A stretch of DNA of 64,000 nt from a virus, in the IMG/VR virus record IMGVR_UViG_3300026512_000003, positions 1 to 64,000 of that record, one strand, 5' to 3'. Below, in pieces: positions 5,473 to 60,454 of this stretch. How positions within the stretch are numbered: the stretch's first letter is position 1; each line of letters starts with the position of its first letter. The notes under the pieces were generated by a model that did not search any database, was not told the origin of the DNA, and saw only the letters and a program-made list of their open reading frames with translations. The translations under genes were made by a program, and so were the position numbers.

Positions 5473-7254
5473 ATGGCATCAACTTTCAGTGGAAAGCTTT
5501 ACGATAGAAAATTCATGACAAGATATAATCAGCTAAGTAGTGTGTATGCTGATATCTTACCAAATGATATTCGTGAAGCAATTCAGTGGTCACAATTCAT
5601 TATTGCGAATGTGCCAAAAGCAGCTACTGCATTAGATAAGCTGTCATCGGTAGCAATTACATCTTTACAATACCAAACTTCAGACTTAACAGAGGCATCG
5701 GGAGTAGATGCTAAGTCTTGGAAGAATATTATGGAAGATAAATTAGAAATAGAAGAAAAAGTTAAAGAAATTGGGTTTAACTTTCTTCTCAATGGGAACT
5801 CATTTACATCAGTATATTTTCCTATACAAAGAAGTATGAGATGCTTAAAGTGTAAGCAGTCATCTTCTCAAATACATTTTGATGGAAAGATAACACTTAA
5901 GCCATCAATAGAACGACTTGAAACAGAGAAGAATAAAAAAAAGAAAGAAATGCTTGTGTTTAAAGGTATTTGCCCACATTGTAAAACAAGTAGCATGTTT
6001 AAAGCAGAAGACATTGTTATAAAAGATGTTAGCCGAATCAACATAGTGTCTTGGCCCGTATTTAATATGAGTTTTATTGAAGATACAGTAACAGGAAGAG
6101 CTACTTATTACTACAAGATGCCAAAATCAGAGGAAAAGCTGATAAAAGATGGCTATAACGATATGATATTTCACCAACCATTAGATATTATTGAAGCTGC
6201 TGTTCGTGGGACATCTGTTAAGTTTGATAATAACAAGATACTACACACAAGACGAAAGAAGATGAATGGGACAAACTCTAAATGGGGTATGCCTCTTCTT
6301 TTATCTGCTATCCCTGAAATGATTTCACTTTTACTTCTTAGAAAAGGGAATGAGCGTATATTGTCGGATATGATATTTCCTCTTAGGGGTGTTACTCCTC
6401 GTTCTACTGGTGCTGACGGTCAAGCAATGTATAATTTTATTAGTGGAACAGAGTTTTCTGCGAAAATTGAGAAGTTACTTCTTAGTCATAAAACAAATCC
6501 AACAAGTATTAAATACTTCCCTATACCGATAGACCCAGTAACGGCATTTGGAGAAGGAAAGAGCCTTAATTTATCAGGTGAGATAGATGAGCTAACCACA
6601 ATGATTATGACATCTATAGGGGTCCCTATAGAATTTGTTACAGGTGGACTTGGATACAGTGCTGCGGGAGCTTCAATTAGAATACTTGAAAACCAATTAA
6701 CAGACTTGTCTGGGACAATGGAAAATATAGCTAATTTTGTTGCACAGCAGGTAGCATCGTATATAGGAAAAGAACCTGTTCGCATCAAGTTTGTTCCAAT
6801 TAAACTTGTTGATGATATGACAGAAAAACAATTGCTTCTTAGTCTTTATCAAAATCAAAAAATCTCTGATCATACGATTGCGTCAATGTTTAAATTGGAT
6901 GCTAAGACAGAGAGCGATAGACTTGTTGAAGAGAGTAAAACTAGTGCTCGTGGACAAATGGAAATTCAATCTTATCAACAAGAGCTTAATCAAGACCTCG
7001 AAGAGAAAGCAAAACAAGAAGCAATGCTTTCTCAAAGCTCTACAGAACAAGTTAATCAACAAGCGATTATGCAAGAAGCTGATCAAATGGCTCAACAACT
7101 TGCTCAAATGGAAGCTGGACAAAGACGCTCTGAAATGGATAGATTGCAAAAAGATAATTGGCTATTGTATGTTGCTACTAAAGAGCGTATGGAATTTAAT
7201 GGTCGCAAGGATGCAACAGCAGCAGCACAGCAAGCACAACAGGAACAGCAATAA
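5473..7254 (+). CDS. Portal protein with Zn-ribbon insertion and Gln-rich C-terminus
   Basis: 593 aa; portal-like landmarks (IGFNFLLNGNSF, KILHTR...WGMPLL, IMTSIGVPIEFV, ISDHTI); CLKC...CPHC insertion. Confidence 0.75.
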   Translation: MASTFSGKLYDRKFMTRYNQLSSVYADILPNDIREAIQWSQFIIANVPKAATALDKLSSVAITSLQYQTSDLTEASGVDAKSWKNIMEDKLEIEEKVKEIGFNFLLNGNSFTSVYFPIQRSMRCLKCKQSSSQIHFDGKITLKPSIERLETEKNKKKKEMLVFKGICPHCKTSSMFKAEDIVIKDVSRINIVSWPVFNMSFIEDTVTGRATYYYKMPKSEEKLIKDGYNDMIFHQPLDIIEAAVRGTSVKFDNNKILHTRRKKMNGTNSKWGMPLLLSAIPEMISLLLLRKGNERILSDMIFPLRGVTPRSTGADGQAMYNFISGTEFSAKIEKLLLSHKTNPTSIKYFPIPIDPVTAFGEGKSLNLSGEIDELTTMIMTSIGVPIEFVTGGLGYSAAGASIRILENQLTDLSGTMENIANFVAQQVASYIGKEPVRIKFVPIKLVDDMTEKQLLLSLYQNQKISDHTIASMFKLDAKTESDRLVEESKTSARGQMEIQSYQQELNQDLEEKAKQEAMLSQSSTEQVNQQAIMQEADQMAQQLAQMEAGQRRSEMDRLQKDNWLLYVATKERMEFNGRKDATAAAQQAQQEQQ

Positions 7255-16643: not shown

Positions 16644-18071
16644 ATGCAAATTAAGATTAATTGTCATGTAGAGATGTCAGATATTACTGAAGCAGAAGCG
16701 TTAACGAAAGCTACTGAAAAAGTGGAAAGTTATGATGCTCTAGTCGAAGAAATAGCTGGAGAAGAACTGGTTACCAAGCTATACTATATAGTACCTAAAC
16801 TTGGAAAAATATTGGTTGTTGTTTCAGAAGAAGATAGAGTTATATTGGGTGTAGATAGCACAGTTCTTGCAAATACTTTGATCTCTGAATATCCTCTAGA
16901 GAAGCTTCCTTCACAGGTTGTTGCTTATCGTGAGCTTATCATTAAAGTTGGAAACGAAATAGATATGGATTCAATTATGAATGCAGCTCAATTTATTGCA
17001 GACGATACTGCATCAAAAGTTATGCCAGCTAGAATGCCTGTTGTTAAAGTGATCAACTATAACAATACCGATGAGTCTGTTTTGGTTGTTCCTAGTGTTT
17101 TTGGAGGTAATGTTTTTTCTAGTGTATCTGGTATTGTAAACAGTGGTGATGCAGAGGCAGGAAATGAAGTTATTGCTAGTTCAGGTATTATTGCTATTAC
17201 TTGTCCTACTGATGGTAGTGTAGTTGCAGGAGATACTTATAACGGTTATTTAGTTGTAGATGGAGATACTTTAAAAACTATGATTAGCAATGGTGATGAT
17301 GTAACGAATGTTTGTACTTCTTTAATAACTGATATGCGTGAGATTGCAAAAAATGTAGAAGACTTCAATCAAGATATTTCTCGTTGGGATGTTAGCAATG
17401 TTACAGATATGTATGATATGTTTTTTGGTGCAAAAGCTTTCAATCAGGATATCTCAAGTTGGGATGTTGGTAATGCTACGAGTTTGAGTTTTATGTTTTC
17501 TAATGCATCAGCTTTCAACCAAGATATCTCAAATTGGGATGTTTCTAATGTTACAGATATGGCTGGTGTATTTTCTGGTGCATCAGCTTTCAATCAAGAT
17601 ATCTCAAGTTGGAATATTGGTAATGCTACGAGTTTGAGATATATGTTTCATAATGCAAAAGCTTTCGACCAGGATATTTCAAACTGGGATGTTTCTAATG
17701 TTACGCGTATAGAAGATATGTTTTCTGGTGCAAAAGCTTTCAATCAAGATATCTCAAGCTGGGATGTTGGTAATGCTACGCAAATGCAAAATATGTTTTC
17801 TGGTGCATCAGTTTTCAACCAGGATATCTCAAGTTGGGATGTTAGTAATGTTACAAATATGAATGAGATGTTTAATAATGCATCAGCTTTCAACCAAGAT
17901 ATTTCAAGCTGGAATGTTGGTAATGTTACGCGTATGGAAAAGATGTTTAATAATGCATCAGCTTTCGACCAGGATATTTCAAGCTGGGATGTCAGCAATG
18001 TTACAAGGTCAACTTACTTTGCGCTTAGTTCTCCTATAGATGGAACAAGCAAAGAACCAAACTTTTCATAA
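16644..18071 (+). CDS. Paralogue B: shared N-terminal domain plus DUF285/BspA-like (PARCEL) repeats
   Basis: Nine 25-aa repeats F[ND]QDISxW[DN][VI]xN[VA]T...MF, preceded by the cap NVCTSLITDM. Confidence 0.85.
   Translation: MQIKINCHVEMSDITEAEALTKATEKVESYDALVEEIAGEELVTKLYYIVPKLGKILVVVSEEDRVILGVDSTVLANTLISEYPLEKLPSQVVAYRELIIKVGNEIDMDSIMNAAQFIADDTASKVMPARMPVVKVINYNNTDESVLVVPSVFGGNVFSSVSGIVNSGDAEAGNEVIASSGIIAITCPTDGSVVAGDTYNGYLVVDGDTLKTMISNGDDVTNVCTSLITDMREIAKNVEDFNQDISRWDVSNVTDMYDMFFGAKAFNQDISSWDVGNATSLSFMFSNASAFNQDISNWDVSNVTDMAGVFSGASAFNQDISSWNIGNATSLRYMFHNAKAFDQDISNWDVSNVTRIEDMFSGAKAFNQDISSWDVGNATQMQNMFSGASVFNQDISSWDVSNVTNMNEMFNNASAFNQDISSWNVGNVTRMEKMFNNASAFDQDISSWDVSNVTRSTYFALSSPIDGTSKEPNFS
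17364..18038 (+). repeat. 75-bp coding tandem repeat (9 copies)
   Basis: Recurrent TTCAAYCARGATATYTCAAGYTGGGATGTT at 75-nt period. Confidence 0.9.
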
Positions 18072-20277: not shown

Positions 20278-23200
20278 ATGACTAAGTTAGACAGAACTCC
20301 TGATAAAATGAATGAAGCATTAAAAGACACAGTACTTAATACTTATGAAGGTAGAGAAGTAAAGGGAAAACATAAGACTCTTGTCTATAGTAATGTTCAC
20401 GCTACACCTACAGATAATGGTTATTCTTCAACAAAAAAAGCAGTAGACACAAAAGCCACTCTTTCTCAAAAATTTAAAGCTGATCTAACATTAAAAAGTT
20501 CTCTAGATGGACGAGTTCTCGAACATAAAAAAGGTGTGTTTATTGGTGATATTCCTATTTATTCTAAGAAAGGTGGTTTTGTAGTAGATGGGAACACCTA
20601 TAATATTCCTACCCAAATACGATTAAAACCATCAGCGTATACATCAGAAAAAGCCAATGGTGATGTAGAAACAATGATGAATTTAAAGAACGGGAAGGGA
20701 ATGAAACTTATTTCCCCTCAAGATAAAAATAAAATTGAATTAAAAATAGGGACTAAACAGTTTAATCCACTTGATGTTGCATATGCAATGGGAGCTAATG
20801 AAAAAGAAGCAAAGAAAGTTTTAGGTGACAAAGTTTTTGGTTTGTTACAATCAACATCTTCTCCTCATGAGTCAACTTTAAAATTAGCAACAGCATTAGG
20901 TATTTCTGAGCCAAACAACAATACTCCAATAAGCGAAGTAAAGGCTCAAATTAAAGATTACTTTCAAAAAACACAAATAGATCCACAAGCAACAAAAGAA
21001 ACTCTTGGTATGCCATTTTCTTCAATGAATCATTTAGCAATGCTTCGTTCTATTAAGAAAAATATAGGTGTGAAAACGGGGTATGAAAAACAGGACGATA
21101 AAGAAAATCTAATGTTTAAGAATATTATATCTCCAGAAAAATTAATTGGTGAGGGAGTTAATAAAAGACTAGCTCAGAGTGAAGCCAAAATGAAAAGTGG
21201 ACTCAATAATGCTTTTGCAAAAAATACAATAGGTGAAATAGTTACTGAACCTACTTTGAAAAAAGCAGCAAAGAGTTTTCTTACCACTAGTGCCATTTCA
21301 AGAATGCCTGAGGAATACAATCCTCTTCAAATGCTTCAAGGTAGTAATGATGTCACACCTTTGGGTGAAGGTGGAATTAGCGATACAAGAATGATTAATC
21401 AGAATGTAAGATCTTTACATATGTCTCAGTTGGGTTTTATAGATCCAATAAAGTCTCCAGAAGGTGCAAATACTGGAGTTACTTTAAGTCTAACACATGG
21501 TGCTCATGTTGATAGTCATGGAAATGCTGCAATTGAAGTTATAAATAACAAAACAGGAAAAAAAGAGATAAAAACTGTAGGAGATCTTTGGAATAAAAAA
21601 ATAGCTTTTCCTGATGTAAAAAAAGATGGATCAGTAGGAATGAGACATAAAGATAAAATTATTGTTGGCAACATAAGAAATGCTGACTATACTCTTGCTC
21701 ACTCCGAAAAGACATTTGGACCTGCTATGAATTCTTTAGGGGTTATAAGTTCAAACGATCCAACGAGAAATCTTATGGCATCGAAACACTCAACTCAAGC
21801 GTTGCCTTTAGTAAATGGGGATTATACTTCTGTGTCATTAGAGGGCGAAAACGGAAAAAGTATGTCTGAAAATCTTGCAAAAAGGCATTTACCACTTGCT
21901 GATATAAACGGTAAAATAACAAATGTAGATTCTAAGAATGGGTTTATTCATATTTCAAACGAAAATGGTGAACATAGCAAGATAGAGTATGCTAAAGATA
22001 AGATTCAATTAAACACGAAAACATACCTTCAACACACTCCTGTTGTAAAAGTTGGTGATACTGTAAAAAAAGGACAACATCTTGCAGATTCTAACTTTAC
22101 AAAAGATGGAAAGCTTGCTCTTGGTAAAAATTTAAGAACATCATGGATGGTGTATCCTGGAACAAGAAATGATGCTTTTATTTTATCAGAAAGTGGGGCA
22201 AAAAAACTTACTTCAGTACATTCTAAAAAATTTGATATTTCGACAAAAGAAGGCACTATTTATGATAAGAAAAAATTTGCAGCTCTTTTTCCAGAAGTAG
22301 CTCAAAAGATAGATATTCATAAATATGATGACAAAGGTTTGTTAAAAAAAGGAATGACTGTGTCTAAGGATGAACCAATATCCTTAGGCTTTAGAAAGAT
22401 GGATAGTGAGGAAGTAAAATTTGCCAATGATAAAGTAAAAAAGCTTATGTATGGCGGAATGGCCCCTGTTATCCAGAGATGGAAGGGTGACGATGTTGGA
22501 ACAATAAAAGAGATTGTTACAAAAGGGGCAAATACTAGAGTTGTATCGGAATATACTTCACCTATGAAGGTTGGTGACAAGCTAGCGGGAAGAAGTGGGA
22601 ATAAGGGTATTGTTTCGGCTATTCTTCCAGAAAAAGATATGCCTCGCGATGAAGAGGGAAATCATATAGAACTTCTCATGGGTGGAGCAGGAGTTACTTC
22701 GAGACAGAATCCGGCACAAATAATAGAGGCTTCGCTTACGGAAACAGCATTGAAAACAGGGAAAAACTATGTGTTACCTCATAACCCTGATGTGGATATG
22801 GATGTTTTTGCTAAACAGGAGGCAAAGAAAAATAATGTAAAATTGTATCATAAAATGTATGATCCACTTAGAAAAAAACATCTAGGGAAAGATGTATTTG
22901 TTGCAAATTACAATGTAATGAAATTATTTAAACAAGGTGATGCAACATATTCTGCAATTGGTCATGGTGGAGTTGGGGCAGATAATCAACCAAAAAAAGG
23001 TGGAAAAGAATCTCCTTCTACAATCTCAAACATGGAAATATCAGCACTGTTAGCACATGATGCAAAAGATTTCTTGAAAGAATCTTATAGTATTAGATCT
23101 CAGCACAATAAAGACTGGTTTAGAGCTTTTGAAGCGGGAGAGTCATTACCAGCTCCTGAATTAAAAACAGGAAAAGAGAATTTTCATAAAATGCTGTCTC

Positions 23201-24513
23201 AACTAAGAGTAAAGACTGTTAGTGATAAAAATCATATGCATTTATTGCCTATGACAGATAGAGATGTAACAAAAGTAAGTACAGGTGCTGTAACTGAGCC
23301 TTATGGGCTTAAGAGGAATACTATGACACCTGTGAAGGGTGGTTTTTATGATACTAAACTATTTGGTGGTACAGGAACGGGTGTTGCTCATATAGACCTT
23401 GGGACAAAAGTGGTCAACCCTTTGTATAAAGGTACTGTTGCTTCTCTATTAGGCACATCTGAAAAAAATTTAGATGCTAGAATTTCTAACGAGGGAGTAA
23501 ATGGAATTTATTCAGAAGTTGGAAACATAAAACCAAAAAACAAGATTAAAGAACTAAAATCAGAAATTTCAAGAACAAAAGATAATGGAAAAATAAATAG
23601 ATTGTTTAGCACTATCAAAGCAATAAGAAAAACAGATGAAAATACAAAAGATATAAGAGATGCTATGTTTATGTCCAAGGTTCCTGTACTTTCTACAGCA
23701 CTTAGACCTGTGCAGAAATTACCTTCAGGAAGCATTGTAGAACATGATATAAATATGCATTATGCAAATATAATTAGAAGTAGTAATATTCTAAAGGAGG
23801 CTAAGAAAGAAAAAGCACCAATTCATATTCAGAATCACCTTCAAGATGAGCTTCAAAAACATGTTGGTGCAATGTATGGAACAAATGAAAGCCCTGACCC
23901 AAAAATGAAAGATAAAGATGTAAAAAGTGTTATGAATATTTTAGCAGGTGATAACCCAAAAACTTCATACTGGCATCAAAAAGTAATGAGACAACAAGTG
24001 TTTGGTTCTGGTAGAGCAGTAATCCTTCCAAAAATAAAATCACTAGGAATGGATGAAATAGAGATTCCAAAATATGTAGCTTGGAAAATGTTTGAACCTC
24101 ATGTGACAAGAAAAATGTCTCAAATGGGTATTGACTCTAATACATCAAAAGATATGATAGAGAAAAAGAGTGATACAGCTAACGCTGTGTTACATCAAGT
24201 GATGAAAGAGGTTCCTGTTGTGATAAATAGAGCTCCTTCTCTTCACAAGCATAATATGACAGGACACTATGCGAAAATAAGTGCAGGTAATGCTATGCAT
24301 ATATCTCCTATTATCGAAAATGCTCAAAATGCAGACTACGATGGGGATCAAATGGGTATTCATATTCCTTTTACCCATGCAGCAATAAAAGATGTAAAAG
24401 ATAAGCTTATGGCATCAAAACAAATAATGACGAATTCAAATAAAAATAAAGTTATAATGGGGATAGATTTGGACCCGTTTATAGGATTTTATGAAGGTAG
24501 TAGAAAGAAGTAG
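20278..24513 (+). CDS. Phage DNA-directed RNA polymerase, beta subunit fused to the N-terminal half of beta'
   Basis: beta motifs LGEGG, GFIDPIKSPEGANTG, NDPTRNLMASKHSTQALPL, GKLALGKNL, VGDKLAGRSGNKG, SRQNPAQ, QPKKGG..MEISAL; beta' motifs GFYDTKLFG, AHIDL, VPVL...RP, SGRAVI, INRAPSLH, NADYDGDQM (24328-24348). Confidence 0.95.
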   Translation: MTKLDRTPDKMNEALKDTVLNTYEGREVKGKHKTLVYSNVHATPTDNGYSSTKKAVDTKATLSQKFKADLTLKSSLDGRVLEHKKGVFIGDIPIYSKKGGFVVDGNTYNIPTQIRLKPSAYTSEKANGDVETMMNLKNGKGMKLISPQDKNKIELKIGTKQFNPLDVAYAMGANEKEAKKVLGDKVFGLLQSTSSPHESTLKLATALGISEPNNNTPISEVKAQIKDYFQKTQIDPQATKETLGMPFSSMNHLAMLRSIKKNIGVKTGYEKQDDKENLMFKNIISPEKLIGEGVNKRLAQSEAKMKSGLNNAFAKNTIGEIVTEPTLKKAAKSFLTTSAISRMPEEYNPLQMLQGSNDVTPLGEGGISDTRMINQNVRSLHMSQLGFIDPIKSPEGANTGVTLSLTHGAHVDSHGNAAIEVINNKTGKKEIKTVGDLWNKKIAFPDVKKDGSVGMRHKDKIIVGNIRNADYTLAHSEKTFGPAMNSLGVISSNDPTRNLMASKHSTQALPLVNGDYTSVSLEGENGKSMSENLAKRHLPLADINGKITNVDSKNGFIHISNENGEHSKIEYAKDKIQLNTKTYLQHTPVVKVGDTVKKGQHLADSNFTKDGKLALGKNLRTSWMVYPGTRNDAFILSESGAKKLTSVHSKKFDISTKEGTIYDKKKFAALFPEVAQKIDIHKYDDKGLLKKGMTVSKDEPISLGFRKMDSEEVKFANDKVKKLMYGGMAPVIQRWKGDDVGTIKEIVTKGANTRVVSEYTSPMKVGDKLAGRSGNKGIVSAILPEKDMPRDEEGNHIELLMGGAGVTSRQNPAQIIEASLTETALKTGKNYVLPHNPDVDMDVFAKQEAKKNNVKLYHKMYDPLRKKHLGKDVFVANYNVMKLFKQGDATYSAIGHGGVGADNQPKKGGKESPSTISNMEISALLAHDAKDFLKESYSIRSQHNKDWFRAFEAGESLPAPELKTGKENFHKMLSQLRVKTVSDKNHMHLLPMTDRDVTKVSTGAVTEPYGLKRNTMTPVKGGFYDTKLFGGTGTGVAHIDLGTKVVNPLYKGTVASLLGTSEKNLDARISNEGVNGIYSEVGNIKPKNKIKELKSEISRTKDNGKINRLFSTIKAIRKTDENTKDIRDAMFMSKVPVLSTALRPVQKLPSGSIVEHDINMHYANIIRSSNILKEAKKEKAPIHIQNHLQDELQKHVGAMYGTNESPDPKMKDKDVKSVMNILAGDNPKTSYWHQKVMRQQVFGSGRAVILPKIKSLGMDEIEIPKYVAWKMFEPHVTRKMSQMGIDSNTSKDMIEKKSDTANAVLHQVMKEVPVVINRAPSLHKHNMTGHYAKISAGNAMHISPIIENAQNADYDGDQMGIHIPFTHAAIKDVKDKLMASKQIMTNSNKNKVIMGIDLDPFIGFYEGSRKK

Positions 24514-24591: not shown

Positions 24592-26343
24592 TTGAAAGTA
24601 ATCGTAGGTGAGTTAGATTTTAGTAAACTAGGGGAAACATTTGAAATAGAAAATCAAGGATGTGGGGATTACAATTGCAAATTTGAGTTATGGACAGCTA
24701 ATGAGATAGAAGTTTTAGAAAAGATTCCATTGGAGATAAAGGAAGGTGGATTCCAGGTTCCTATAAGTACATGGAAAGAAGCTTCAATAAACCCTACAGA
24801 AATAGTGATTTTTTTCCGTAAAGAATGGAGATTAGAGGCATGTAAAAGAGTTATTCTTGACAGTAACCCTGTGCAATCTGTAGGCAAGTTAGTAGTAATT
24901 AGGCCAGATGCTAATAAAGTAGAGGAATTGTTTACACAACACAAGACTACACTTGATGTTATTGTAAATAAACCATTTAGGTTGCCTCTCAGGATTAAAG
25001 ACTTTAATGAATGTTCAGAAGAAGAATGTGCTCTTGAAATAAATATAGGATGGGTTACTTATAAAGGGCAAAGTCTAAATCCATTTTTAGCAGGCTGTTC
25101 ATATTCTCTCTCTCTTGATGGTGGTCAACATTGGCAAGAAAGTCTTGACCTTCTTTTTTATGAAACAGGTAGTAAGGAAATTAAATTTATGATAGAAACA
25201 GGTGATCTTGGAATAAATGACGAAGCAGAAGTATCTTTTCAAATAAATGTAATAGAAGACCCCGAAGCAACAGAAACAGAAGATCTTGTAGATGTCGTTA
25301 CTCAAATGCCAAAAGCTTACTTTGTGGTTCAAGATAGAGGGGTGAGAAATGGAAATTTAACTTTAAATGTTTTTCACACTAGCAAATACCAAATTTCTAC
25401 AATTGAAATATCTTTAGATGATGAAGTTATATATCCTTCTCAAGAATTTAACTCTCCTTTAATAGAGATTGGAGTGGGAAGTTCAGATTTAACCGAAAGA
25501 ACACTTAAATTAAGTACCACAGGAGTTAGTGAAGGGGAGACAATTTCTGATACATACACGCAAGTAATTAAAAACTATACAACATTAGATGGGACAATTT
25601 CAACATCTCAAGATTCAGACACAGGAAAATATACAGCGTTACTTGAAGCAAGTATGCCAGATAAACTGACTAGTATTTTGTGGCAAATTGTGTATAGCTC
25701 TACAATAGTAGAAAAAGTAGTGAAATTAGAAGATAAGGATGAAAAAGCTCTTCTCCATGTTCTTTATCAAGAGTATTCAGAGCCGACAGAGACATCTATC
25801 GAATTTGATATATATAATCCAGGAAAGTATATGATAGAAGCCTATATGATTGATGAGACAGGTGAAATGTTTAAAGTATCAAGAGAATTATTTATTCCAG
25901 GTGAACGAGATGATGATGAAGAAATTAAAGTTGGCGATGATATTACAGTAGGATGCACAAGTGTACACGGTGAAGTTCCTATAATGAAAGTGTTTAGATT
26001 ATCACAAGATGGATATGAATTATTAGATAATTTTGCTATGGAAAAAGCTTTTGATAAAACTTATGTGGCTAACTTTACCGTAGAATACGAAAATAGTTTC
26101 TATATATTTCAAGCAGAAAGTAGTATTGTTGTTAAAAAAGTAGGTGAGCCTTCAGGATGTATTATTTCTTTTTCTAGAGATAAGACATCAGGAAGATCTA
26201 TCCCTTACAGATTAGAAAATTTTTCAGGTGATTTAATAGAAGAAGGAACATTAGACGATTCTACATTTGGAATATACTATAAAGTTATGGAAAACGCATC
26301 TGATGGCATTCTTACAGTGGGAAATACCAGAAAGGTAGTGTAG
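24592..26343 (+). CDS. Acidic multi-Ig/PKD-like virion protein
   Basis: Beta-rich; FYETGSKEIKF and IYNPGKYMIEAY resemble PKD/Ig strands. Confidence 0.6.
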   Translation: MKVIVGELDFSKLGETFEIENQGCGDYNCKFELWTANEIEVLEKIPLEIKEGGFQVPISTWKEASINPTEIVIFFRKEWRLEACKRVILDSNPVQSVGKLVVIRPDANKVEELFTQHKTTLDVIVNKPFRLPLRIKDFNECSEEECALEINIGWVTYKGQSLNPFLAGCSYSLSLDGGQHWQESLDLLFYETGSKEIKFMIETGDLGINDEAEVSFQINVIEDPEATETEDLVDVVTQMPKAYFVVQDRGVRNGNLTLNVFHTSKYQISTIEISLDDEVIYPSQEFNSPLIEIGVGSSDLTERTLKLSTTGVSEGETISDTYTQVIKNYTTLDGTISTSQDSDTGKYTALLEASMPDKLTSILWQIVYSSTIVEKVVKLEDKDEKALLHVLYQEYSEPTETSIEFDIYNPGKYMIEAYMIDETGEMFKVSRELFIPGERDDDEEIKVGDDITVGCTSVHGEVPIMKVFRLSQDGYELLDNFAMEKAFDKTYVANFTVEYENSFYIFQAESSIVVKKVGEPSGCIISFSRDKTSGRSIPYRLENFSGDLIEEGTLDDSTFGIYYKVMENASDGILTVGNTRKVV

Positions 26344-54386: not shown

Positions 54387-55997
54387 ATGAAAACAAACCC
54401 TAGAGTTTCAAAATTTATGTTAGACTACGCTTTTATTGACGGAAGAAAGCTTGATTTTGAAAAATATGAAGCATTTAAGCTTCCTTACGAGGTTGATGAG
54501 AGGCAGGTTTTGCTTACAGCAGGAAGACAGGTTGGTAAGACAGTTTATCTAGCTGGAAAACTTGCTGTGAAATCTGTTTTAAAAAAAGGTTCGAGAGCGT
54601 TATATGTTGCACCATTGGAGTCTCAGACAAAGACCTTCTCAAAAACAAAACTTCAGAAAATAATAGATGATACAAAACAGTTAAAAGCAGCATATACTGG
54701 AAAAGGTACACAAAATGATGTGTTCTTTAAGCAAAACATTTTAGGAAGCTATATCGAGCTTACTTATGCTTCTGTCACAGGGATGGACCCTGTCAGGGTT
54801 AGGGGTAAGTCTGCAGATGATTTATTTATAGATGAAGCACAAGATATTGATTATGACATTTTGCCAGCAATACAAGAAGTTACAACATCTGCGGAAGACC
54901 CAACTGTGACATATGCCGGTACAGCAAAAAGCCTTGATAATACAACAGGAGTAATCTGGGATTTGTCTACAAAATTGGAAAGAATGGTTTATTGTAAACA
55001 TTGTGGACATTGGAATATTTTAGACAGAAGAAACATATCAAAAGAAGGTCTTGTCTGCAATAGAATGAAATGTCGAAGACCTATTTCTGTTAGGGATGCA
55101 AAATGGATGATTACGGGTGATAAGCACGCTACATATCAAGCTTTCAGAATACCTCAAATTTGTCTTCCAATGCATACTGAATCGAAAAGTCATTGGAATT
55201 CTGTATGGAACAAATATGTAGATTATCCTCCAGAGATTTTTAATCAAGAAATACTGGGAATTCCAAGTGGAGCAGGAGATAGACTCTTAAATCTTGAAAA
55301 ACTAAAAGCTCTTTGCACAGGTGGAAGAATGACAGTGTATCCAGATGAAGGTTTTTTCCAAAAATATCATGGTCTTTTCATGGGGATAGACTGGACAGGT
55401 GACGGAGTTCTTCTTAAATCAAGAACTGTTGCTACTGTGATTGGCCATAGAAAAGATGGAAAGCTTGAATTGGTATGGGGGAAAATCTTTCCACCAGGAA
55501 GCGTTAATGAGCAGCCTAAAGAGCTTATTAAAATTGCTAACCTTTTTAGATGCTCTGTTGTAGGAGCCGATGCTGGTATGGGTATGATGCAAAATGGGGA
55601 AATAACTCAAGCATTAGGAATAAGTAGGTTTAGAGCTATACAATATATTGCGGGGAATACTCCTTTTACTTTTGACTTTGAAAACAATACTATTAAATTG
55701 AACAAAACCCAAGCAATTGATACAGTTATGATGTTGTTCTTAAAAAAGTTTAAACCTAAAAATTTTGGGGGATCTGCAAGAAATTACTCTGGTCATGGGG
55801 TATTAGAGATTGTATTTCCAGAATATGATGATATGAGACTTTTTATACAAGATATCTTAGCTGAATTTGAACAGGAAACTGCAAAACACACTAAAATATG
55901 GACTCATAGCAACATGAAGCCCGACGATACTCTTCATGCAATAGTTTTTGGTTTTTATGCATATATGCATCATCGTAATACTGTGAGCTTTTACTAG
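54387..55997 (+). CDS. terL: Terminase large subunit
   Basis: Walker A GRQVGKT, Walker B LFIDEAQD, motif III AGTA, Zn ribbon CKHC..CNRMKC, RNase H-like MGIDW...PDDTLHA. Confidence 0.92.
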   Translation: MKTNPRVSKFMLDYAFIDGRKLDFEKYEAFKLPYEVDERQVLLTAGRQVGKTVYLAGKLAVKSVLKKGSRALYVAPLESQTKTFSKTKLQKIIDDTKQLKAAYTGKGTQNDVFFKQNILGSYIELTYASVTGMDPVRVRGKSADDLFIDEAQDIDYDILPAIQEVTTSAEDPTVTYAGTAKSLDNTTGVIWDLSTKLERMVYCKHCGHWNILDRRNISKEGLVCNRMKCRRPISVRDAKWMITGDKHATYQAFRIPQICLPMHTESKSHWNSVWNKYVDYPPEIFNQEILGIPSGAGDRLLNLEKLKALCTGGRMTVYPDEGFFQKYHGLFMGIDWTGDGVLLKSRTVATVIGHRKDGKLELVWGKIFPPGSVNEQPKELIKIANLFRCSVVGADAGMGMMQNGEITQALGISRFRAIQYIAGNTPFTFDFENNTIKLNKTQAIDTVMMLFLKKFKPKNFGGSARNYSGHGVLEIVFPEYDDMRLFIQDILAEFEQETAKHTKIWTHSNMKPDDTLHAIVFGFYAYMHHRNTVSFY

Positions 55998-56848: not shown

Positions 56849-57826
56849 ATGCAACCAGCAGTATCAACAACAGTTAGTTCAAACCAATTTGTTTCAAGAT
56901 TATTCGATGACGAAGGTTTTGTAAAAGAAGCAGCAGATGCTCTATCACTTTTTATCCAAGATAAAATTCGTGAAAAAGGATTTGCTCGTAAAATAGTTAA
57001 ACCTACTCCTGTTTCAGCAAAAGATTTAGTGCCTACAGAGCATACTGATCAACCTGCAATCATGGTAGAAAGAGATGTGGATGCTCGTGCAATGACAGTT
57101 CCTCTTCGTGGTCGTGGTGAATTCAGATATCATGAAACAGACAGATATATGGTTTATTTTGAAAAAGTTGTTTCTGAAAAAATTAGAAAATCAAAAATGG
57201 AAATGATGACAGTTAAAACTGATTATAAAAAACTTTTCCAAGATAGAATTTCTGAAGCAATGTACGAAGTAGAAGACTTAACAGTTATGGGTGGTGTAAA
57301 AAGTGCTCTTGCTAATGAGGAAGCTGCATATAAAGAAGCAAATGGTGGTGATTTAGCTTCTCAAGGAAATAAAACTTTCTCAGCTCAGACAGTTTACTTT
57401 GGAGAAGGTGAAACATTAGACAAATCGAATCTAGTATTCCTATTCCAACTTCCAACAAGAAATAGAATTAGTAATAAAACAGTTCTATTAACAGAAACAC
57501 TTCTACAAGAGTTAATGCATATGACTATGCAAGAAGTCGGTGATAGTGTTGTTTCTAAATTCTGGCAAGATGGTGTTGATAATATTTCAGAGTTCTGGAA
57601 TAAACAAGTAGTAACAACAATTAAATCACACATCATTAAAAATAATGAAATCTACACATTTGCTTCTCCAGAGATGTATGGACATTTCTTTATCTTACAA
57701 GACCACACTTCGTATTTCGAAATTGATCGAGACATGATGACTATGGATAGTGAAGCATATATTGCTCATGCAATTGGAAACACTAAAGGTGTTTACAAAG
57801 GTGTGTTTACAGATATCGCTGAATAG
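56849..57826 (+). CDS. Major capsid protein (HK97 fold, predicted)
   Basis: 325 aa; strong AAGGAG RBS and biased codons; IREKGFARKI, long helix ending YEVED, C-terminal HAIGNTKGV; followed by a terminator. Confidence 0.75.
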   Translation: MQPAVSTTVSSNQFVSRLFDDEGFVKEAADALSLFIQDKIREKGFARKIVKPTPVSAKDLVPTEHTDQPAIMVERDVDARAMTVPLRGRGEFRYHETDRYMVYFEKVVSEKIRKSKMEMMTVKTDYKKLFQDRISEAMYEVEDLTVMGGVKSALANEEAAYKEANGGDLASQGNKTFSAQTVYFGEGETLDKSNLVFLFQLPTRNRISNKTVLLTETLLQELMHMTMQEVGDSVVSKFWQDGVDNISEFWNKQVVTTIKSHIIKNNEIYTFASPEMYGHFFILQDHTSYFEIDRDMMTMDSEAYIAHAIGNTKGVYKGVFTDIAE

Positions 57827-58184: not shown

Positions 58185-58292
58185 ATGCCAGAAGAACTCG
58201 CCATAGTTATCAAAGAAGAAGTAAAAAAACAAGTGCTAATGTTTCTGTTGACTCATTATTTAAAAAGACTTGCGGAGGGCCAGAGATGTTAA
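58185..58292 (+). CDS. Possible 35-aa peptide
   Basis: AAGGA RBS; MPEELAIVIKEEVKKQVLMFLLTHYLKRLAEGQRC*, overlapping the next start. Confidence 0.35.
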   Translation: MPEELAIVIKEEVKKQVLMFLLTHYLKRLAEGQRC

Positions 58293-59260
58293 TAGATATT
58301 GTAAATGATTTAGGGCAAAAAGTTTTAATGGAAAAAGTTGCTAGTTCTGAAGATGTAAAAGGAAGATTGGCTCGTATTTCTAATTTAACTATTCCAGAGC
58401 GAGATTCTTTAACTAAAGAGGCTTTTGCGTGGCCAGAGGAAAAGCTGTTTCCTATTCATACACCTGAACAAGCATTAGTAAGTAGTGCTTACCTATCTTC
58501 TAATCCTGATGTGCCAAGCTTCGTTAAAACAGCTTGTGAAGAAGCGTGCCAACTATGGGGATATGATGTAACAATAGAACCTTTTATAAAAGAAGCTGCT
58601 GCAAAAGAAGTTCCTGAAGATATTTTTCTGCTTCCAATACAAAGAAAATTGCCTGTGGTAGACAGAGAAAGTTTTATTCGCTCAAAAGGTATTCTAGAGA
58701 AACATGCAAGCGACCTAAGTATAGGTGATACTGTTCTTGCATATAGACAACTTACAAAAAGAGCTTCTGCATTAGGAGAGACTGTCAATGAAAAAGAATC
58801 CATTTTAGGTCTTTATGGTGGAATAAAAAAAGACAGTGCTTGTGAGCAACTTAGGCTAAGGTCTTTAGAAACTGGTGATGAGAGATATGAAAAAATTGCA
58901 AGCAGTATTCAGTTAAACTTACTTACGAACCCTACTGATATTTCAAATTTTATTTTTGATGTTTCTGAAATAGATGAAGATAATAATTTCGTAAAAACTG
59001 CGTCAGAAACAATTCTTGATTTTATTGATCCAACTATACCACAAGAAGATGTATTTACTGTAGGCGATAAGTGCTTTTCTCTTGAAAAAGTTGCTAGTCT
59101 TCAGCCGAATGATTTAATAGAAATATTCAGTGAGACAGATCTTGAAAGTTTGTATCTTACTGGTAATTTGGATATAATGTCTTTACAAAAATTTGCTGAA
59201 GAGTCTCCTTCAGAAGTGCAAGAGCTTCTAGGTGATTTTATTCAAGAAAAAATACAATAG
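58286..59260 (+). CDS. KxA-repeat protein (putative prohead core/scaffold) with two DUF6582-like motifs
   Basis: Ten hydrophobic-x-K-x-A motifs; FAWPEEKLFPI and FLLPIQRKLPV. Confidence 0.6.
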   Translation: MLIDIVNDLGQKVLMEKVASSEDVKGRLARISNLTIPERDSLTKEAFAWPEEKLFPIHTPEQALVSSAYLSSNPDVPSFVKTACEEACQLWGYDVTIEPFIKEAAAKEVPEDIFLLPIQRKLPVVDRESFIRSKGILEKHASDLSIGDTVLAYRQLTKRASALGETVNEKESILGLYGGIKKDSACEQLRLRSLETGDERYEKIASSIQLNLLTNPTDISNFIFDVSEIDEDNNFVKTASETILDFIDPTIPQEDVFTVGDKCFSLEKVASLQPNDLIEIFSETDLESLYLTGNLDIMSLQKFAEESPSEVQELLGDFIQEKIQ

Positions 59261-59547: not shown

Positions 59548-59859
59548 ATGGCAACTGTACCATCAAATGAACCAGCATTAAATACAGAAGGTTTTTCATC
59601 TGTATCTGGAGCAATCACATTACAAAAACAAATTCAAGCAGTTAGAAAAGCAGATCCTATTTTTGCGATAGGCGATGAGAACCTAAAGGGTTATGTTGCT
59701 TTAAAAATGTATGATCAAACAACAGCATCTGTTATTAACTCGGAAGATCTTGACCCAACAGACTTCGACTTATTTAGAGGAGAAAGTTACGCAAGTGGCC
59801 AACCATATGTAACAAACGAGGCAACTTGGGCTAGTGGTGGAGACCTTGCAGACTTATAA
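59548..59859 (+). CDS. Hypothetical protein
   Basis: AAGGA RBS. Confidence 0.65.
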   Translation: MATVPSNEPALNTEGFSSVSGAITLQKQIQAVRKADPIFAIGDENLKGYVALKMYDQTTASVINSEDLDPTDFDLFRGESYASGQPYVTNEATWASGGDLADL

Positions 59860-60454
59860 TAGCGATGGCACTATAGAACACTTTAAGAAAAAATTCTCTT
59901 CTTCTTTACCACCCTCTGAGCTTGAATATCTTTTGTTCAAGGGGTTTAATAATGCAAAAGCTACTTTTGACGCTTCAAAAGGGGCAGGATTTGCAACCCA
60001 TTTATCTAATCATTTACAAAGACTTTACAGGGACGCAGAGTCAACAAAAAGCTCATTAAAGACAAGCGAGGGTTCTTTATTAAAAGACAATAAAGTTCTC
60101 CGTGCGAAAGATGAACTATATATGCGTTTTGGGACTGAGCCTTCAAATGAAGAAATCGCTAAACATTTAAAAATGCCTCTGAAGGACATTTCAAAGTCAC
60201 TACGAAATTCAGGAAGACAAAATGTTAAAGTTAAAGAGTATAAAAGCAAGCAAATACAAATAGATGTACCTACTCTTTTACCTTCAATTAAAAAAGATGA
60301 GCAAAAAATAGCAGATACAATTGCTAAAGGCATGAACCTGCAGCAAAGTCTTAAGCATACAGGTATGTCTAAGAGTGAGTTTTATCGACAGCAAGGCACA
60401 TTTAAAGATAAGCTTAGGCAATCATACTTACGAACAGCCGAAAGGGAGAGTTAA
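59834..60454 (+). CDS. Sigma70-family RNA polymerase sigma factor (regions 2-4; start uncertain)
   Basis: Region 2 FDASKGAGFATHL (cf. FDPxRGxKFSTYA); region 3 ELYMRFGTEPSNEEIAKHLKM; region 4-like HTH GMNLQQSLKHTGMSKSEFYR. Confidence 0.75.
   Translation: MVETLQTYNSDGTIEHFKKKFSSSLPPSELEYLLFKGFNNAKATFDASKGAGFATHLSNHLQRLYRDAESTKSSLKTSEGSLLKDNKVLRAKDELYMRFGTEPSNEEIAKHLKMPLKDISKSLRNSGRQNVKVKEYKSKQIQIDVPTLLPSIKKDEQKIADTIAKGMNLQQSLKHTGMSKSEFYRQQGTFKDKLRQSYLRTAERES

Follow-up and report, generated by a model that had tools for sequence, protein, structure and literature searches.

Genes and products at the locus

We analyzed the viral record IMGVR_UViG_3300026512_000003 from IMG/VR, a phage contig of 165,427 bp rated 88% complete, of which the first 64 kb (64,000 nt) are referred to as the window. 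An open reading frame (ORF) in the window encodes a protein that joins the beta subunit of a bacterial-type RNA polymerase (RNAP) to the N-terminal part of beta' (beta'-N) and stops shortly after the catalytic loop. The C-terminal part of beta' (beta'-C) is encoded elsewhere on the contig, and a sigma-70-family gene is found in the window. The features are as follows (window coordinates, except the last line; Arash is a cultured Salmonella phage):

20278..24513, plus strand: RNAP large chain, beta fused to beta'-N; 1411 aa, TAG-terminated, no cysteine
20278..23208, plus strand: beta part, residues 1 to ~977; ~360 aa shorter than E. coli beta
23206..23235, plus strand: beta/beta' junction, ~residues 977-986; a short linker
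23365..23397, plus strand: site of the deleted beta' clamp zinc ribbon (Zn1); E. coli C70, C72, C85 and C88 are gone
23719..23916, plus strand: clamp helices, residues 1148-1213; predicted dock for sigma residues 22-36 (model only)
24328..24348, plus strand: catalytic loop NADYDGD, residues 1351-1357; 54 residues follow
24511..24513, plus strand: TAG stop; the chain ends at ~E. coli beta' 513-517
59834..60454, plus strand: sigma-70-family factor, 206 aa, no cysteine; homologue of Arash gp10
Genome 88304-90046, minus strand: beta'-C, 580 aa, PF04998 match; ~E. coli beta' 575-1356

The initial annotation, made from the window alone, described a single 1411-aa chain with beta motifs running without a stop into beta' motifs at about 23200-23260 and ending about 55 aa after NADYDGD. 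Pfam domains occur in the order Rpb2_3 (residues 345-411), Rpb2_6 (541-883), Rpb1_1 (1083-1224) and Rpb1_2 (1292-1374), and PDB sequence matches cover beta across residues 84-997 and beta' across 1064-1409, in agreement with that description. Compared with E. coli, beta ends at ~residue 977 and beta' starts at ~980-986, and the linker between them has the same length in split relatives and in most fused ones. Both catalytic barrels are present in the one chain, as had been proposed: the DxDGD barrel has D1353, D1355 and D1357, which are invariant among 46 aligned relatives, and the second barrel has the two lysines K768 and K776 (E. coli K1065 and K1073), the combination expected of a two-barrel bacterial-type enzyme. 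In the alignment the beta part retains equivalents of E. coli R678, D814, K1065, K1073 and R1106. Since residues of the rifampicin pocket are altered (Q513R, D516E, H526G, R529D, and S531T), the enzyme is predicted to be resistant to the drug.

Neither beta'-C nor alpha is encoded in the window, and the initial annotation predicted a separate beta'-C subunit. In a hidden Markov model search of the whole contig, PF04998 matched a gene 64 kb from the large chain, whereas the alpha domains PF01193 and PF01000 had no match in the contig. The 580-aa product matches solved beta' structures by sequence and by predicted fold (pLDDT 83.5; Foldseek TM by query 0.59-0.72). It keeps the bridge-helix residues equivalent to E. 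coli R780, T790, and G794 (R179, T189, and G193 in the chain) as well as K197, has trigger-loop residues Q304 and H311 at the positions of E. coli Q929 and H936, and retains the second zinc site with its four cysteines. PF04983 (Rpb1_3) had no match anywhere in the genome, and neither had PF04542 (sigma region 2); both domains are too diverged for detection here. Stand-alone beta'-C homologues number 46, nearly all of 520-624 aa, and several contigs carry both such a homologue and a large chain. The two halves are complementary: the first chain ends at ~E. coli beta' 515 and the second starts at ~575.

In a homologue search with the large chain, ~100 family proteins rank above the first cellular beta. 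Thirty-two close members (49-63% identity, this protein counted in) end 53-67 residues past the catalytic motif, 43 more distant relatives end 84-114 residues past it, and 19 homologues continue for 552-782 residues. Because close and distant relatives end at matching places, we judged the stop to be real. The possibility that it is a sequencing error, or that the gene is a decaying fragment, is negligible: besides the matching ends, the downstream DNA is devoid of beta'-C (the next ORF, at 24592, has no RNAP match), intact beta'-C genes are found elsewhere, and the catalytic residues are invariant. The annotated position of the cut, right after the catalytic loop, is accurate for this phage (54 aa), but the usual family cut lies at 84-91 aa and this subclade has been trimmed further. 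In most relatives the cut falls in a variable linker just before TTxGR, ~10 residues from the start of cyanobacterial RpoC2 (position 21 of the beta'-C profile is matched to residue 12 of the RpoC2 chain 8syi_Z). The phiKZ-type enzymes use the same beta' split site as cyanobacteria (PMC7598289). The family cut lies close to this site, and the end found here is therefore a trimmed form of a known weak point.

We concluded that the large chain is almost certainly the beta plus beta'-N component of a two-chain phage DNA-dependent RNAP. Chain 1 would supply both barrels, the catalytic aspartates, the flap and the clamp, and chain 2 would supply the rim helices, the bridge helix, the trigger loop and the second zinc site; judged from these sequences, the two chains together would carry out template-dependent RNA synthesis.

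Distribution and phylogeny of the family

A single-protein scan of viral contigs gave nothing, whereas an alignment-based scan recovered the family. The IMG/VR scan yielded at least 561 matching stretches, some of which fall outside the family. Among the best 79 viral loci, 11 are fully fused and 46 have beta'-C 0.5-5.1 kb downstream; the other 22 have no beta'-C within the flank examined, some being incomplete and some having a distant gene. In the subclade of this phage the halves lie 30-70 kb apart on opposite strands, and the nearest members show further residue loss at the cut. This enzyme is thus one member of a large family common to many phages and not a one-off. Family membership, the sigma gene in the window and the evidence for virion packaging (see below) are additions to the initial annotation.

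The only cultured full-length matches are in Salmonella phage Arash and Vibrio phages D69, D148, and D181, and only these match the capsid protein as well. Their chains (gp206 and gp216 in Arash, with sigma gp10; OQ632216; PMC10585845) are orthologous, have the same fusion and split, and fall in the same tree clade. Arash also shares portal, terminase, capsid, sigma and several virion genes with this contig. The differences are that the Arash and Vibrio chains are only ~25-31% identical to those described here, that their beta'-N retains the last 30 aa, that their beta'-C lies 0.6-4.8 kb downstream of the large chain instead of 64 kb away on the other strand, and that Arash has a second sigma factor and the gp217 helicase, neither of which was found in this contig. 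In the Arash paper the genes are called beta and beta', and their layout receives no comment (PMC10585845).

In trees of the joined chains, the split forms all fall in a single clade (SH-aLRT 99-100) that arises within a grade of fully fused phage enzymes; the placement holds with and without the junction columns and under a mixture model. The 18 cellular rows all fall to the same side of a branch supported at SH-aLRT 100, and the phage enzymes are not nested among the cellular RpoB/RpoC sampled. These trees cover 13-18 cellular rows, with no archaea, cyanobacteria or mReC phages, have long branches, and come from quick searches without bootstrap. Because the split clade nests in the fused grade when the tree is rooted on cells, the sequences make it likely, under that rooting, that fusion came first and was followed by a single fission. 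Grouping the fully fused enzymes in a single clade is rejected by an approximately unbiased (AU) test (p 0.015); with a group chosen only once the tree was known, and LG+G4 as the model, this is weak support. Both genes and trees thus support the annotated reading of a bacterial-type phage RNAP with a fusion plus a split.

It is very unlikely that the gene is a recent capture of a host fused RpoBC of Helicobacter type that was subsequently broken. Of the clade-specific NCBIfam models, those giving the highest scores to the SSB, DnaB, and NrdA proteins of this phage are PRK08486, PRK08506, and PRK08447, which are Campylobacterota families. The host may therefore be a member of the Campylobacterota, and this is what makes the failure to nest meaningful. 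A named Helicobacter RpoBC, however, is 24% identical and groups with E. coli and Acinetobacter, and the nearest kin are Salmonella and Vibrio phage proteins and metagenomic phage proteins. No Campylobacterota rpoBC was present among the 60 plasmid-collection matches listed. Nesting within host RpoBC, which the initial annotation had named as the outcome that would speak against its reading, was not found among the cellular sequences sampled, Helicobacter-type fusions included.

Several observations concern variation in the family and its surroundings. Some relatives have a third chain, with the additional cut inside the beta C-terminal part (profile position 914) or at the beta/beta' junction (loci L112, L114, and L120, and also L126 and L142, of which the latter two could be sequence errors). 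In one subgroup (L097, L112-L118, L120, and L134) beta'-C has a C-terminal extension of 400-850 extra residues, and several of its members are without all four cysteines of the second zinc site. Intein or homing-endonuclease domains occur in many members (P0041, P0051, P0059, P0069, P0072, and P0187-P0213), and in Vibrio phages D148 and D181 the RNAP match contains a homing endonuclease gene. Members L125-L134, L143, and L144 are in contigs binned to unrelated bacterial and archaeal metagenome-assembled genomes; these are probably phage contigs in the bins and not host genes.

Other fused enzymes fall outside the family. P0102 was considered as a possible donor and rejected, as the gene is cellular, has rpsF, ssb, and rplK for neighbors, and falls with the cellular sequences in the tree. 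L022:8001-14756 (GCA_021801885.1) encodes a compact cellular fused RpoBC of 2251 aa, beside rpsF, ssb, and rplK, which groups with a Dojkabacteria sequence. L146:7239-12764, on an 883-kb Vicinamibacterales contig, encodes a fused divergent RNAP-like protein of 1841 aa on a long branch outside the family, perhaps a mobile-element enzyme. P0229, P0231, P0232, P0233, and P0235 are divergent fully fused RNAPs of 2480-2860 aa in a clade of their own, neither cellular nor of this family.

The sigma factor and the lack of alpha

The sigma gene was detected only through Arash gp10. Its product has a PF04539 (Sigma70_r3) match above cut-off (E 1.1e-9) and a phrog_351 match across residues 24-202, and its Atlas score is 0.96; sigma region 4 had no match. 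In a complex model of large-chain residues 625-1411 with the sigma protein the score was 0.71, compared to 0.00 for the best control. The docking mark is reached by 58/80 solved complexes and by 2/110 mismatched pairs. The docking runs share at least 80% of contacts, with a partner pLDDT of at least 71; residues 22-36 of sigma contact the clamp helices, and residues 163-206 are among the flap-side and flap-tip contacts. The modeled docking may pass by likeness to solved bacterial holoenzymes. By this model the phage sigma would bind the clamp and flap for promoter recognition.

Co-occurrence was examined in 31 large related genomes, ten of which had been picked through beta'-C. All 31 have beta'-C, including the 21/21 that were not picked through it (4 of these are fully fused). 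Sigma70_r3 was found in 29, and the remaining two were matched by the family sigma profile. PF01193 was above cut-off in 0/31 genomes and in 14/14 controls; one relative gave a weak alpha-domain match (E 0.006, 28 positions) below cut-off. In two complete genomes from the nearest clade, the large chain, beta'-C and sigma are each encoded once.

Assembly, which in bacteria depends on alpha, has probably passed to the covalent link between beta and beta'; the two chains would assemble without the alpha subunit of the host. It is unlikely that the phage chains are not self-sufficient and borrow the host alpha dimer (and omega), with the phage sigma perhaps redirecting the host polymerase. This alternative has in its favor that beta keeps, around residues 787-811, the DMP and GVxSR-type motifs that are close to alpha in bacterial enzymes. 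Also in its favor, many RNAP-less phages encode sigma factors for the host enzyme (PMC13282480). Against it, the sigma accompanies the RNAP in every one of the 31 genomes and, like the RNAP, has lost cysteine, and beta' 518-574, part of which presumably faces alpha, is lost in this subclade. In addition, the phiKZ and AR9 cores function without alpha (PMC7598289).

Virion packaging and injection

The large-chain, beta'-C and sigma genes are placed among virion genes, beta'-C being three genes downstream of the head protease gene:

5473..7254, plus strand: portal-like protein, homologue of Arash gp204; adjoins the RNAP gene in most relatives
54387..55997, plus strand: terminase large subunit, homologue of Arash gp1
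56849..57826, plus strand: major capsid protein, homologue of Arash gp226
Genome 92021-93274: head maturation protease match

In purified Arash particles (sucrose-gradient preparation), gp206 ranked first and gp216 fifth by number of spectra, and gp10 was found too (PMC10585845). Unique peptides per 100 aa, computed from Table 2 of that paper, were 8.4 for gp206, 6.6 for gp216 and 10.3 for gp10, compared to 9.8 for the capsid protein, 5.5 for the portal and 0.2-1.4 for six replication or metabolic enzymes; spectra per residue were 2.3, 2.0, and 2.0 for the three RNAP proteins, respectively. The second, cysteine-bearing Arash sigma (gp196) is not among the particle proteins listed (PMC10585845 Table 2).

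Cysteine loss runs through the family. The large chain has no cysteine in 1411 aa, compared to 1.04% genome-wide (P ~4e-7); none occurs in any of 32 close large-chain relatives or in 23/26 sigma orthologs, and most family cores have 0-8 cysteines in ~2050 residues vs. 14-34 in cellular ones. The N4 virion RNAP, which is injected, also has no cysteine (PMC3915230). Split and fused members alike (ten family rows) have lost the clamp zinc ribbon, which the cellular rows and YerA41 retain.

Most likely the three proteins are expressed together with the virion genes, enter the head during packaging and are injected from it; the injected enzyme would transcribe early genes independently of the host polymerase. 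We consider it probable that this is a virion-packaged, alpha-less, sigma-dependent holoenzyme that is injected for early transcription, with its activity, injection and early-gene role predicted. A rather improbable alternative is that the same two-chain enzyme is a non-virion protein, synthesized in the infected cell to transcribe middle or late genes, and was carried over into the Arash particles. Obvious non-structural enzymes are on the Arash list and the authors themselves raise carry-over (PMC10585845); in addition, only one RNAP is encoded, which therefore must serve whichever stage needs it, possibly both. The peptide coverage, however, resembles that of capsid and portal and not that of the carried-over enzymes, and the family-wide cysteine loss, the Zn1 deletion and the position of the genes among virion genes also argue against a purely intracellular enzyme.

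A number of points weigh against the packaged, self-sufficient enzyme. The Arash preparation lists 116 proteins, many of them enzymes, and packaging in this phage is transferred by homology, as the Arash proteins are only ~25-27% identical. The ~57 E. coli-equivalent residues between the two chains are missing in this subclade, and the trigger loop has the changes R933S and F935K. The sigma model is also compatible with binding to the host enzyme. An alpha gene or a second RNAP could be missing from the contig because it is only 88% complete, and a very divergent alpha would escape Pfam.

Other virion-related proteins were noted. Arash gp217 (L014:2261-3679) is a cysteine-free helicase encoded directly after beta'-C, with a per-residue abundance in particles equal to that of the RNAP; homologues are found in 49 family loci and none in this contig, and it is possibly a co-injected partner lost in this subclade. 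Arash gp7 (L011:7425-8105), a 226-aa virion protein, matches the zinc-site region (205-275) of the beta'-C profile, as does OZ195729 7912-8112 (E 9e-13 and 2e-7 for the two). By sequence gp7 looks like an RNAP zinc module standing alone close to the sigma gene; this contig showed no such separate copy. Repeated hydrophobic-x-K-x-A motifs occur in many virion-block proteins, up to 10 per protein in raw counts (window 58286-59260; genome 72076-74202, 86867-87472, 92021-93274, and 157436-159808), and the large RNAP chain has 3 such sites by raw count. A 1396-aa protein (genome 65924-70114, minus strand; L001:2924-7114) has no cysteine and no PHROG match and is a candidate tape-measure or ejection protein. 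The 790-aa ORF at 157436 was rejected as an RNAP N-terminus: it has no Pfam or PHROG match and is a homologue of Arash gp218. A 475-aa ORF (window 16644-18071) has DUF285 (BspA-like) repeats (E 6e-98).

Comparison with known RNA polymerases

Cyanobacterial and plastid RpoC1/RpoC2 are cut at nearly the same place as this enzyme, but those enzymes have beta as a chain of its own and include alpha. The fused RpoBC of Helicobacter, Wolbachia and others joins the beta C-terminus to the beta' N-terminus as here, but has a full-length beta', keeps Zn1, has alpha and is separate in the tree. The canonical bacterial core (alpha2 beta beta' omega) differs in its encoded alpha, its clamp zinc ribbon and its place among cellular sequences, none of which was found for this enzyme.

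The phiKZ and AR9 enzymes resemble this one in having no alpha or omega and in the beta' split after the catalytic barrel; a virion form of them exists, as is proposed for this enzyme (PMC7598289, PMC7824862). They differ in having 4-5 core chains, a beta that is split and unfused to beta', usually two RNAP sets, and no sequence-recognizable sigma, whereas this phage has two chains and a Pfam-detectable sigma, with one RNAP set in the contig and in the two complete nearest-clade genomes. The enzyme thus resembles both the bacterial holoenzyme and the phiKZ/AR9 enzymes (no alpha, beta' cut) yet belongs to neither group.

The nearest described layout is that of yeast pGKL2 K2ORF6p and K2ORF7p, two chains with beta fused to part of beta' (PMC6211774), a fusion that its authors called unique. 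That enzyme is cut later (between beta'a15 and a16, archaeal-like), is without most of the clamp and the rim helices, and is sigma-free and related to poxvirus enzymes, whereas the phage enzyme is cut ahead of the rim helices and keeps both its clamp helices and its rim helices. The RNAPs of the mReC phages (PMC7481178) and of YerA41, Carin-5, and RP13 are alignable to bacterial beta and beta', as here, and YerA41 and RP13 split beta' too. In the mReC dataset rows examined, however, beta and beta' are separate genes; the mReC type is defined by two such genes of at least 800 aa each, unlike the fused large chain and 580-aa beta'-C here. YerA41 keeps Zn1, has 16 cysteines and falls outside this family in the tree. 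The YerA41 RNAP and sigma were also detected in particles (PMC7354516). The single-chain virion RNAPs (crAss phi14:2 gp66, P23-45, and YonO-like) have both barrels in one chain and packaged or injected use, but their divergence from cellular subunits is far greater (PMC7481178). A functional analogue, the N4 virion RNAP, has an unrelated fold. None of these enzymes was among the best 60 PDB sequence matches listed.

No description of the fused-and-split layout was found in the open-access full-text literature (subscription papers were outside that search). Each ingredient is known; the combination and the family are without description in the papers found.

Significance

The family offers a natural series, from one chain to two with neighboring genes, two encoded 64 kb apart, and three chains, in which the same beta' linker has been cut independently once more. 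It is near enough to bacterial RNAP for residue-by-residue comparison and, unlike the phiKZ-type enzymes, has a recognizable sigma-70 partner. The enzyme also marks a large phage lineage that the published surveys found do not describe, and the cultured phage member, which grows on a standard Salmonella strain, makes the family experimentally accessible. We tentatively suggest, at somewhat less than an even chance, that the three proteins (~2,200 residues) form a self-sufficient holoenzyme that is injected and starts transcription at specific promoters without alpha or omega. Alpha-free assembly of a cell-type RNAP has been stated as an open question (PMC7598289). If the suggestion is true, the beta-beta' fusion replaces the alpha scaffold, and the fission and the loss of cysteines and of the zinc ribbon are adaptations to capsid exit; the enzyme would then be a minimal sigma-dependent bacterial-type RNAP, testable in the cultured phage Arash.

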